Source: Candidatus Limnocylindria bacterium | GTDB taxonomy: Bacteria > Chloroflexota > Limnocylindria > P2-11E | Length of the DNA: 64,000 bases | NCBI GenBank assembly: GCA_038211425.1 | Contig: JBBQVQ010000001.1 | Location: 39,991-103,990, forward strand | Direction of reading: 5' to 3' | Notes under the pieces: model-generated | What the model was told of the DNA's origin: nothing | The model's database searches: none | Seen by the model: only the letters and a program-made list of their open reading frames with translations | Shown: piece after piece, positions 2,288 through 61,716 of the stretch | How the letters are laid out: the number at the start of each line of letters is the position of its first letter | How positions within the stretch are numbered: position 1 is the first letter of the stretch | Program-made: the position numbers and the translations under genes

Positions 2288-4189
2288 ATGCCGAAGGCGA
2301 GACCGAGGCGTTTCCCGCCGCAGCGCGGCCCGCGACCCCGTCGGCGACCGTCGCGAGGGCAGCCGGCGGCCGTGGTCGTCGCGCCCGCTCCTGCCGTCGC
2401 GGTCATCCCCGAGGACCAGGGCTCCATCATCCTCCCAAAGACCATCCCCGTCGGCGAGCTCGCGAAAACGTTGGATATCAGCGTGGTCGACGTGATCCGC
2501 GCGCTCGTGAACATGGGGGTGATGGCGACGATCAACCAGACCGTCGACTTCGAGACCGCCTCGCTCGTCGCGAGCGAGCTCGGTTTCGAGGTCGTGCCCG
2601 AGGAGGACGTCGTCCCGGAGCTGGAGGCTCTGCCGACGGAGCCGGTGTCGACCAAGCAGGTGCTATGGACCGACGAAGACACCTCGAAGCTCCGTACCAG
2701 ACCGCCGGTGGTGACCATCCTCGGTCACGTCGACCACGGCAAGACCAGCCTCCTCGACGCGATCCGGGAGACGAACGTCACCGCCCGCGAGGCTGGCGGG
2801 ATCACGCAACACATCGGCGCGTACCAGATCGAGCACAAGGGACGGAAGGTCACCTTCCTCGACACGCCGGGGCACGAAGCGTTCACGGCGATGCGCGCTC
2901 GTGGGGCGCAGGTAACCGATGTTGCGATCCTCGTCGTCGCCGCCGACGACGGCGTCCAGCCTCAGACGGTGGAGGCGATATCGCACGTACGCGCGGCCGG
3001 CGTGCCGATCGTCGTCGCGCTCAACAAGATCGACAAGAGCGACGCGAACCCCGACCAGGTGAAGGGCCAGCTCGCCGAGCAGAGCGTGACGATCGAGGAG
3101 TACGGCGGAGAAGTGCCGCTGGTGGCGGTGTCGGCCAGGACCAAGCAGGGCATCGAAGAGCTCGTCGAGGTCGTCCTCCTGGTGGCTGACGTCGCCGATC
3201 TCAAGGCCGACCCGGACCGCTCCGCGATCGGCCGCGTCATCGAAGCGCACCTGGACAAGGGCCGCGGACCAGTTGCGACGGTCCTCGTGCAGACAGGCAC
3301 GCTCGACCGCGGCGATCTCATCGTCGCGGGGACGACCTTCGGAAAGGTCCGCGCGATGACCGACCACAACGGCAAGAGCATCGGCCGGGCAGAGCCCTCG
3401 CGACCCGTGCAGATCCTCGGCCTTCCCGAGGTGCCCGAGGCCGGCGACGTGCTTCGCGCGGTGGCCGACGAGAAGACGGCCCGTGCTCAGGCGGCGCAGA
3501 ACGCGCGCGATCGCGCGGCGGCGACAGGCAGCGAGCGCCCGGCGACGCTCGACGAGATGTTCGCCCAGGTCAAGGAGGGGAAGGCCAAGGAGCTCAAGAT
3601 CGTGCTGAAGACCGACGTACAAGGCTCGCTCGAGGCGATCAAGGGGGCGCTGGCGAAGGTCCCCCAGGACGAGGTGGCGCTGAACGTGATCCACGACGCG
3701 GTGGGCGACATCACCGAGTCGGACGTCACGCTCGCGGCCGCGTCGGGGGCGGTCGTGATCGGCTTCAACAACCGCGTCGACGTCCCCGCCAAGCGCGCGG
3801 CCGAGCAGGGCACCGTCGACATCCGGCAGTACAAGGTCATCTACGAGCTGCTCGAGGACGTGGAGAAGGCGCTCACCGGGATGCTCGAGCCAGAGATGGT
3901 GGAGAGCACCCTGGGCCACGCGGAGGTGCGCGCGATCTTCACCGCGGGGAAGACCACGATCGCGGGCTGCATGGTCGTCGATGGCCTGATGCGCCGTGGA
4001 GTTCAGGCGCGGCTCATCCGAGGCGGCGCACCGGTGCACGAGGGGCGGATCGACACTCTTCGGCGCGTGAAGGACGACGCGCGCGAGGTCAACGCCGGGC
4101 TCGAGTGCGGGATCGTCCTCGAGGGACACAACGACGTGCTCGTGGGCGACGTGATCGAGTGCTACGTGATCCAGCCCAAGCCCAGGTAA
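2288..4189 (+). CDS. infB: translation initiation factor IF-2
   Basis: 633 aa, R/P-rich N-terminus, G-domain [27 protein letters not shown] with ggaggatagg RBS. Follows nusA/ylxR. Confidence 0.95.
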
Positions 4190-59905: not shown

Positions 59906-60544
59906 ATGGCGACCGTCATCCGCGCTCGAGAAAGCCGGACGCCTCGCGTGGGCGGCCGCCCGAGCGTCTCGTCGCCGGACGTGACGCCGTTCACCTTCGA
60001 CCCGCAGCGCGTTGCTCGCCTCGAGACGATGGCCTGGCGCGCGTACTACGAACGCCACTGGCTCGCTCTTGCCTACTTCACGGAGCGGGCATGCGCCGAC
60101 CAGTTCCACGTTCCACTCCCGATCTCGGCCCAGGCGGCTTACTACGCGACCCGCGGGGCGGTCGCCTTCAAGCCGGTCGACAACGATGTCGGCCTCGCCG
60201 TGGCCGCGCTCGCGCGCTACTACGCCATCGTGCGGCGGCACTCGGGCCTGGCGTTCGATCCCGCGGAGGTCGCGCGCACCGAGGTCCGCTACTGGGTCGT
60301 GCATAGGCGGCTGTCCGGAAGCGGCGACCATGCGGAGCTCGTCGACACGTTCGCCAAGCTCCACGCTTTGACGTTCGCCATCGGGACCGACCGCGCGCGC
60401 GAGTCGGCCGAGTGGCGCACCCGCGCCGCCATCACCGTCGACGACATCACCGGCCGGCGCTCGACGGATCAGGAAGGCGACTGGCGGCGGGTGGAGACCC
60501 AGCTCCGCCGCGGCTATCGCTCACTGGTGGCCGCGATCGCCTGA
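59906..60544 (+). CDS. hypothetical protein (212 aa, W/Y/R-rich, no recognised domain)
   Basis: ORF from the track. Helical protein with repeated AYY/RYY motifs. The start may be internal (MAWRAYYERHW). Confidence 0.4.
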   Translation: MATVIRARESRTPRVGGRPSVSSPDVTPFTFDPQRVARLETMAWRAYYERHWLALAYFTERACADQFHVPLPISAQAAYYATRGAVAFKPVDNDVGLAVAALARYYAIVRRHSGLAFDPAEVARTEVRYWVVHRRLSGSGDHAELVDTFAKLHALTFAIGTDRARESAEWRTRAAITVDDITGRRSTDQEGDWRRVETQLRRGYRSLVAAIA

Positions 60545-60564
60545 GCCGCTGACCGGTCCGGCAC

Positions 60565-60663
60565 GGCATCCACGGCATCCGGGGCATCCACGGCATCCGC
60601 GGCATCCGGGGCATCCGGGGCATCCGGGGCATCCGGGGCATCCGGAGCATCCGGGGCATCCGG
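60565..60663. repeat. 11-copy tandem 9-bp repeat (consensus ggcatccgg; variants ggcatccac, ggcatccgc, agcatccgg) in convergent intergenic region
   Basis: Read directly from the sequence. Lies between the stop of 59906..60544 (+) and the stop of the permease 60664..61716 (-). Confidence 0.9.
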
Positions 60664-61716
60664 TCAGAACGACGCCGGAAGCCGCCCCTCCTTTTGGTAC
60701 GGGATGCCGTCGGCGGCGGGCGGAGTGGCCCTGCCGACCACCCCGGCCAGGATCACGATCGTCGCGAGGTACGGGAGAGCGGCGTACCAAAAGCTCGGGA
60801 TCGTTCTCATCACATCACCGAGCTCCCCGTCGGGCGGCCGCACGTTCACGATGACGCCCAGCGCTGTGGCGGCACCGAATAGGAGCGCCCCACCGAAGGC
60901 GCCGATGGGCGTCCAGCGCCCGAAGATCATCGCGGCGAGCGCGATGAAACCGCGCCCCCCGGTCATGCCGTTCTGGAACGAGCCGGTCGATTCGAGGGTC
61001 AGGAACGCCCCGGCCAGGCCGGCGAGGCCGCAGCCGGCGACGACGTTGACGAAGCGCGTCCGCAGGACGTCGATGCCGACCGTGTCCGCCGCCTTCGGGT
61101 GCTCGCCGACAGCCCGCGTACGAAGACCCCACCGCGTGCGGAAGAGCGCGAACTGGAGAAGCACGACGATGACGATGACGCTCATCGCGATGGGTCCCTG
61201 GTCCAGGAGCATCGAGGCGATGGGTCCAAGGAGGGGAAGTGCGGCGATCTGATCCGGCGCGTGGAACGGAGGGACCACCCCGGCGCCTCCGCGCCCACTG
61301 GGGCTGATCACCAAACGGTTGAGGTATCCGGTGATGCCGAACGCCGCGATGTTCAACATCGTCCCAGCGATGATCTGGTCGGCCCGCACGCTGATCGTCA
61401 GCCATGCGTGCACCGTGCCCGCGAGCATTCCCGTCGCCACAGCGACGGCGATGCCGGCGACGAGCGCGGCCGCGCTGCCGATGGGGTCGTGGAGCGCGAA
61501 CCCGGTGAGATAGCCGAAGAACGCCGCGAGCAGCATGATCCCTTCGATCCCGATGTTCACCACGCCGCTCCGCTCGTTGACCACGCCACAGAGGGCGCCC
61601 AGCGCGAGCGGCGTCGCGAGCGCGAGGACGATCGGCAGGAGACCGGGAACGACGGTGATCAGATAGCCGCCGAGCTCGACCAGCAGACGCAGCACGTGCA
61701 GGATGCCTTCCATCAC
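60664..61716 (-). CDS. ABC transporter permease (CUT2/BMP-type)
   Basis: 350 aa, 8-10 TM helices, branched-chain/sugar-type permease fold. Confidence 0.8.
   Translation of the reverse strand: MMEGILHVLRLLVELGGYLITVVPGLLPIVLALATPLALGALCGVVNERSGVVNIGIEGIMLLAAFFGYLTGFALHDPIGSAAALVAGIAVAVATGMLAGTVHAWLTISVRADQIIAGTMLNIAAFGITGYLNRLVISPSGRGGAGVVPPFHAPDQIAALPLLGPIASMLLDQGPIAMSVIVIVVLLQFALFRTRWGLRTRAVGEHPKAADTVGIDVLRTRFVNVVAGCGLAGLAGAFLTLESTGSFQNGMTGGRGFIALAAMIFGRWTPIGAFGGALLFGAATALGVIVNVRPPDGELGDVMRTIPSFWYAALPYLATIVILAGVVGRATPPAADGIPYQKEGRLPASF

Follow-up and report, generated by a model that had tools for sequence, protein, structure and literature searches.

We analysed a 64,000-nucleotide stretch of contig JBBQVQ010000001.1 from Candidatus Limnocylindria bacterium (assembly GCA_038211425.1; hereafter, the window), which has a G+C content of 70%. 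Two genes converge within it, and the 119-bp gap between them consists mostly of an array of 9-bp units placed head to tail. The left gene encodes a conserved hypothetical protein, and the right gene encodes the second permease of a Bmp-type (nucleoside/simple sugar) ATP-binding cassette (ABC) transporter operon. Direct reading of the array from left to right gives the unit order ggcatccac (u1), ggcatccgg (u2), ggcatccac (u3), ggcatccgc (u4), ggcatccgg (u5 to u9), agcatccgg (u10) and ggcatccgg (u11). Variant units are found at the left edge, where u1 and u3 end in cac and u4 ends in cgc, and at u10, which begins with agc; the central units u5 to u9 are five perfect copies, and the longest perfect stretch inside the array is 45 bp. 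Tandem Repeats Finder (TRF) reports the array with a period of 9, 11.0 copies, 91% matches, no indels and a score of 156, and the runner-up in the 64-kb window scores 68. The period-9 self-match score of the array is 61, and none of 20 simulations of the window by a second-order Markov model scored above 14. The array exists, and it lies far beyond what chance would produce. The original prediction for this DNA had described such an 11-copy array between two convergent stop codons, and direct reading, TRF, the simulations and the positions of the two stop codons all agree with that description. It had also held that this is not a clustered regularly interspaced short palindromic repeats (CRISPR) array, which is correct: CRISPR arrays have repeats of about 23-50 bp and unique spacers of comparable length, and they are ruled out here by 9-bp units that follow one another without spacers. 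As for further arrays of the unit, for which it had proposed a search, the window holds this one array only. All other copies within the 64 kb are isolated singletons near background level, which rules out a dispersed repeat family within the window.

We compared the window with four orthologous loci (L001, L004, L060 and L061) from Candidatus Limnocylindria metagenome-assembled genomes (MAGs) and contigs (Table 1). The names given to homologues by their sources put the lineage in Chloroflexota, Candidatus Limnocylindria. An EamA/drug-metabolite transporter (DMT) gene is present at the locus in all four relatives, and it is missing from the window, where tblastn found no EamA homologue. Conversely, the array is absent from the orthologous loci: no comparable tandem array was found at the locus in L001, L004, L060 or L061, nor in the remainder of the 60 kb taken from related loci. 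BLAST homology between the window and L004 ends at window position 60605 and resumes at 60675, and the 69 bp in between are nearly all array. The corresponding interval of L004 is 1,212 bp in length (980-2191) and holds the EamA gene together with the spacer that follows it. At the 3' end of the permease gene the window is 91% identical to L004, and all other pairs are 82-84% identical. Since all four relatives carry the EamA gene and the window groups with L004, a deletion of about 1.2 kb in the window lineage would be the parsimonious and simplest reading of these loci, with its direction taken from the same comparison. More distant relatives lose synteny at the boundary of the ABC operon, and for that reason the indel could not be rooted more firmly; HAD or GntR genes come after the permease in L053 and L055, and in L048-L052 the hypothetical gene is located elsewhere.

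The same interval has changed in other members of the clade. L060 is 92-96% identical to L001 and yet lacks the hypothetical gene, with about 830 bp deleted and the deletion bounded by the imperfect 13-nt direct repeats AGCCGTCGGCCCGC and AGCCGACGCCCGC. With this loss, the interval from the MoxR gene to the permease is a recurrent deletion site in the clade, prone to deletions between direct repeats of short length. In L061, the orthologue of the hypothetical gene (1290-1925 on the - strand) contains an in-frame TAG (…AEVR*WVVHRRL…) and is called as two open reading frames (ORFs), one of 127 aa and one of 81 aa; either a pseudogene or a sequencing error accounts for this. A recombination hotspot had been among the possibilities raised by the original prediction, and the idea holds up in the form of an indel-prone spot, with the EamA gene missing here and the hypothetical gene lost in L060 and interrupted in L061. 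That prediction was silent on the absence of the EamA gene from the locus and on the G-quadruplex-type motif that is described below. No microhomology could be trusted to mark the deletion junction. The candidates were CCGGATG, where the EamA gene begins in L001, and ATCCGG, close to the stop of the permease in L004; such matches are too short at about 80% divergence, and a junction model based on L004 would remove permease codons that are kept in the window.

Table 1. Coordinates of the array, its neighbours and the loci compared with it (window positions unless a locus is named)
Feature	Position	Strand	Details
Conserved hypothetical protein gene, left flank	59906-60544	+	212-aa ORF, called as 198 aa in P0001; TGA at 60542-60544
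Unique 20-bp spacer, gccgctgaccggtccggcac	60545-60564	.	Between the stop of the + gene and u1; identical in L003
Tandem array, 11 x 9 bp	60565-60663	.	Consensus GGCATCCGG on +, CCGGATGCC on -; direct reading and TRF
Segment replacing about 1.2 kb of L004	60606-60674	.	BLAST
Potential G-quadruplex core, GGGG(CATCC GGGG)x3	60608-60638	+	31-mer GGGGCATCCGGGGCATCCGGGGCATCCGGGG; junctions of u5 to u9
Permease gene, right flank	60664-61716	-	BPD_transp_2 (E = 5.6e-35); stop at 60664-60666 abuts u11
Permease 3' end, as compared	60664-60690		L004 2142-2200; L001 4633-4670; L061 about 310-370
Locus L001 (GCA_038200085.1)			DUF58 - MoxR - hypothetical - EamA - permease - permease - ABC ATPase
Locus L004			MoxR - hypothetical - EamA - 225-bp spacer - permease
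Locus L061			Permease - EamA - hypothetical gene (interrupted by in-frame TAG) - MoxR
Locus L060 (GCA_046262615.1)			EamA - MoxR - DUF58; hypothetical gene deleted
Deletion in L060	L060 (reverse complement) about 3840-3890		Versus L001 2749-2761 and 3591-3603
ACE_CHL4 contig end, L023	JAHBUZ010000001.1, 3868-3935
ACE_CHL4 contig end, L024	JAHBUZ010000033.1, 3233-3284

The ends of the two flanking genes bear on the coding status of the array. The hypothetical protein terminates in ...LRRGYRSLVAAIA (YRSLVAAIA), at a position identical to that of its nearest homologues P0002 and P0003 (...YRSLAAAIA*). The permease terminates in ...PPAADGIPYQKEGRLPASF (KEGRLPASF), and its stop codon is no more than two codons away from those of the L001 and L061 orthologues. 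The repeat as a peptide, whether (PDA)n, (GAS)n, (GIR)n, (MPR)n, (GCP)n or (HPG)n, is carried by none of the 289 homologues retrieved for the hypothetical protein, the permease and EamA. In addition, a frame test based on G+C content at third codon positions (GC3) calls the left side of the array as a + frame and its right side as a - frame, as at a convergent gene boundary. Given that both C-termini match their homologues, that the repeat is absent from all 289 of them and that the GC3 frame switches, the array is, on these comparisons, non-coding, and its placement outside both coding sequences in the original prediction is upheld. The last residues of the permease themselves vary among the relatives, with RLPASF* in the window, RAPASSRP* in L001, RAPAPSRP* in L061 and RLPDRPRRAAGPAPSRQHP* in L004, and most of the 120 best permease homologues listed stop at ...KEG[KR]G*. 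As judged from these alignments, the 3' end of the permease gene is remodelled at the synteny breakpoint.

A possible starting point for the array is found in L004. There, 48 nt past the stop codon of the hypothetical gene, the sequence GGCATCCGCGCCAT matches 14-mers of the array at 13 of 14 positions and is by itself an imperfect repeat of 1.5 units. In 107 kb of clade sequence, matches as good as this one have a background of about 1 per 12 kb, which corresponds to about p = 0.01 for one such match in a 107-bp spacer. The 20-bp spacer that precedes u1 in the window has a loose alignment with the 3' flank of the L004 orthologue. Since L004 holds this proto-repeat in the corresponding 3' flank, we infer that the array expanded by slippage. 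The starting point would have been a proto-repeat of short length on the 3' side of the hypothetical gene, and replication slippage (slipped-strand mispairing) would have expanded it into the array of 11 units. A deletion of about 1.2 kb would have removed the EamA gene between the hypothetical gene and the ABC permease, and the array would sit at its scar, and a recent expansion in the centre would have left degenerate units on the left together with five identical units in the middle.

We therefore consider it likely that the array is a private, probably neutral 9-bp minisatellite of the variable number tandem repeat (VNTR) type that grew by slippage at the scar of an EamA deletion. The array probably has no dedicated function, and its capability to form a G-quadruplex and its nearness to two stop codons are probably by-products. 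Several points weigh against this interpretation. The proto-repeat match is short, as its p value reflects, and the case for neutrality is an argument from absence of evidence that uses sequence data only. The VNTR class is defined by variation in copy number from strain to strain, and this array is known from one assembly. For the polarity of the EamA indel, four relatives and levels of similarity stand in place of a rooted tree, and the similarities among the hypothetical genes are nearly star-like (77-80%). Finally, canonical G-quadruplex motifs are rare in the window (5 in 128 kb of strand), which leaves room for a structural role.

An independent check on the assembly was obtained from Logan short-read contigs (k=31) of run SRR19962011 that enter the array from both sides. 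Contig L003 matches the window apart from one distant mismatch and spans the hypothetical gene through u1-u7. Its end fits a de Bruijn graph, since the k-mer is purely repetitive from that point. Contig L047 is identical to the window and runs from the permease into the array, covering u11 and most of u10. It stops 17 nt past the permease stop, one base before the A that marks u10 (window 60646/60647). Because unique sequence anchors its final 31-mer, branching reads or a drop in coverage are suggested at this position, and the end of L047 may reflect an A/G polymorphism or a length polymorphism of one unit in SRR19962011; this is the sole hint, and a weak one, of heterogeneity and of the hypervariability that the original prediction had proposed. 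Contigs of this kind support the edges of the array and not the number of its perfect internal units, of which the window has five. Two exact-flank scans of Joint Genome Institute (JGI) metagenome contigs returned no matches.

The same unit is found in array form in unrelated high-GC genomes. A pattern scan of the GTDB species representatives with the 27-mer (GGCATCCGG)x3 identified 42 loci in Streptomyces, other Actinomycetota, Chloroflexi and others, and the flanks of these loci have no homology to the window, indicating that the 9-mer arrays in other genomes arose independently. As judged from their flanks, these arrays represent a GC-rich unit that is generated easily and has occurred independently, and not a mobile family; most of them are coding or sit in unrelated contexts. 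The source genome of the window was not among the species representatives that the scan hit. By the GC3 frame test, about 15 of the 42 loci encode (ASG)n or (PDA)n, one and the same frame being called to either side of the array. At three others (L007, L022 and L045, from unrelated Actinomycetota or Streptomyces), the GC3 frame heuristic alone places a 9-mer array at a convergent junction. In ACE_CHL4, an unrelated Chloroflexi MAG, two contigs end inside the same GGCATCCGG / CCGGATGCC array, apparently within an acidic coding region that is rich in Pro, Asp and Ala; these two contigs are probably joined by the repeat, at which the assembly broke.

The hypothetical protein to the left of the array matched no Pfam family and belongs to a very small family, with 47 homologues among 5.8 billion proteins. 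The family has a conserved LRRCYRSL motif near the C-terminus, and two of its members are fused to SRPBCC-type domains (PF10604 and PF03364).

The site of the array, just past two stop codons, had led to the suggestion in the original prediction that it could modulate 3'-end formation of the convergent transcripts, and the structural analysis gave this idea no support. Between 59500 and 61500 we found 0 terminator-like sites on either strand and no promoter-like site. The predicted RNA folding of the array is no better than that of dinucleotide shuffles (z = 0.02 and 0.35 for the two strands), and the folding of the C-rich strand as DNA is marginally better (z = -1.85). The lack of terminator-like sites and of excess folding energy rules out an intrinsic terminator or stable hairpin, and a known RNA family is ruled out by the lack of an Rfam match across the whole window. 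At 60702-60708, 38 nt from the array, the unit core recurs in inverted orientation (GGATGCC, read on +) within permease codons for the conserved D-G-I-P motif. In the permease mRNA this copy could pair with any unit of the array, and no excess stability was found overall. The potential G-quadruplex core listed in Table 1 fits the canonical pattern (GGGG N5 GGGG N5 GGGG N5 GGGG) and is opposite a C-tract of the i-motif type. Canonical G3+ motifs (four tracts of G3+, spaced by N1-7) number 3 on the + strand and 2 on the - strand of the 64 kb, which by count alone is scarce for a window of 70% G+C.

A structured 3'-end element is the alternative to a neutral minisatellite for which most can be said, and we regard it as unlikely. 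According to this model, a G-quadruplex on the G-rich strand, with an i-motif or slipped hairpins on the C-rich strand, would serve as a bidirectional terminator, a roadblock or a stabiliser of mRNA between two convergent genes that the deletion had brought to within 119 bp; the G-rich strand would be the 3' UTR of the mRNA from the hypothetical gene, or the non-template DNA. The four GGGG tracts with 5-nt loops are the only motif of this kind in the 64 kb, with a G4Hunter score of 1.58, and the G-rich strand, which begins 20 nt past the stop of the + gene, is that gene's sense strand; there is no conventional intrinsic terminator in the gap, and the C-rich strand as DNA folds slightly better than shuffles. 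However, 112 other 25-nt windows have G4Hunter scores of at least 1.5, the minimum free energy structure from ViennaRNA with G-quadruplexes allowed prefers ordinary hairpins, and the folding of the RNA equals that of shuffles. The element is present in no relative and so is not conserved, it forms one array in 64 kb, unlike the dispersed G-quadruplex repeats of Xanthomonas and Nostoc, and its 11 units far exceed what a G-quadruplex requires. A more specific version of this model, in which the array was kept after the EamA deletion as a G-quadruplex/i-motif insulator acting in both directions against the collision of convergent transcription, is distinctly improbable. If it were true, the array would be a repeat-born, de novo substitute for a terminator in a high-GC lineage without canonical U-tract terminators, and the copy number of the insulator would be tunable by slippage at the level of the population. 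An assembly artefact is a different kind of explanation, in which the contig was misjoined over a repeat that flanks an omitted segment, such as the EamA gene, or the copy number was guessed by the assembler. The k=31 short-read contigs do break in the array from either side, two contigs of another Chloroflexi MAG end in the same repeat, and L047 stops before the u10 variant, which is unexpected for a unique 31-mer unless reads branch or coverage falls. Against this, the perfect stretch is no longer than 45 bp and is anchored by variant units on either side, so assemblers with k >= 55 would need real spanning reads to cross it. The flanking gene order is syntenic with L001, L004 and L061, indicating that the join connects the correct neighbours, the break in L003 falls at the very point where a k=31 graph has to break, and no EamA orthologue closer than 81% could be assigned to the lineage by searches of the window and of proteins. 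We consider an artefact of this type to be very unlikely.

The remaining alternatives concern what the units themselves might encode or bind. The unit has the length of a DnaA box, and u1 and u3 contain ATCCAC and share 6 of 9 positions with TTATCCACA, so the units might be protein-binding sites, either DnaA-box-like 9-mers or operator repeats, that mark an origin or a regulatory site. Yet no unit lies within one mismatch of TTRTCCACA, and the window holds 3 such boxes as compared with 5 expected from shuffles; together with a GC skew that is flat and shows no switch, these observations rule out a DnaA-box cluster or oriC. The array is also downstream of both genes rather than at a promoter, and it is absent in relatives, and we consider binding sites of any such type to be highly improbable. 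The possibility that the array is coding, either as a C-terminal extension of a flanking gene or within small ORFs on the - strand, draws on a 9-bp period that keeps all frames open. Both flanking stops are TGA with the repeat in frame behind them, and in-frame readthrough would give PDA repeats after the permease and TAS/GAS repeats after the hypothetical protein. The array could otherwise belong to one of the small - strand ORFs at 60447-60659 (MPRMPRMP...) and 60521-60790 (GCPGCPGC...), and the same DNA array is coding in about 15 of the 42 loci from other genomes. Nevertheless, the agreement of both stop positions with orthologues, the absence of a repeat tail in the 289 homologues and the flip of the GC3 signal from + to - across the array all speak against it, and the small ORFs overlap conserved genes in a sequence for which six open frames are common at 70% GC. 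These observations lead us to reject a coding function, which is scarcely credible. A contingency locus for phase variation, in the form of a simple sequence repeat (SSR), is ruled out by the location of the array downstream of both stop codons, and a change in the copy number of a 9-bp unit cannot shift the reading frame. Repetitive extragenic palindromic (REP) sequences, bacterial interspersed mosaic elements (BIMEs) and MITEs (miniature inverted-repeat transposable elements) are likewise ruled out, since the array is a direct repeat, shows no excess stability as a hairpin, has no further copies in the window and matches nothing in Rfam.

With respect to known systems, the array looks like a bacterial intergenic SSR/VNTR locus and not a new kind of element. 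Loci of this kind, with units of 6-12 bp, share with it the head-to-tail units, the homogeneous centre and the degenerate edges, and like it they are non-coding, lineage-private, absent from orthologous sites and best explained by slipped-strand mispairing. Part of the literature frames bacterial SSR/VNTR loci likewise. Named counterparts include the typing loci of Xanthomonas, Burkholderia, Bacillus anthracis and Mycobacterium that are used in multiple-locus VNTR analysis. In contrast with such loci, the array is found in an uncultured soil member of the Chloroflexota (Ca. Limnocylindria) and not in a pathogen for which many strains have been sequenced. REPs occur as hundreds of dispersed copies of an imperfect palindrome that folds into a stable hairpin. 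REP/BIME elements resemble the array in being located between convergent genes just past stop codons, but the array is a direct repeat that folds like shuffles and is unique in the window. The coding (PDA)n and (ASG)n linkers of other high-GC bacteria have the same DNA unit as the array, which differs from them in lying between a + frame and a - frame. A closer likeness in structure is offered by the GGGNATC and GGGGA(C/T)T repeats of Xanthomonas and Nostoc, which form G-quadruplexes (Rehm et al. 2015, PMC4692102). These repeats are enriched in non-coding DNA, on the sense strand and within 50 bp of stop codons, and they are heptamers found at roughly 180 sites per genome, with four units preferred (PMC4692102). 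Like them, the array is a non-coding, G-rich SSR (unit of 6-9 nt) with at least 4 consecutive G-tracts on the sense strand within 50 bp of a stop codon. Unlike them, it is built from a 9-mer and not a heptamer, it occurs as one 11-unit array in 64 kb, no relatives share it, and its G-quadruplex is predicted only.

By itself, the finding matters little. If an insulator function built on a G-quadruplex were real, it would bear on the way in which convergent transcripts are ended in high-GC bacteria that have no U-tract terminators. The array interrupts k=31 assemblies, and the same 9-mer terminates the ACE_CHL4 contigs, so arrays of this kind add to the fragmentation of MAGs. The array is also a potential strain marker for the source population. 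As a slippage-grown minisatellite at the scar of an EamA deletion, it would provide a clean example of a short tandem array that arose where a gene was lost, in an uncultured soil lineage of the Chloroflexota.

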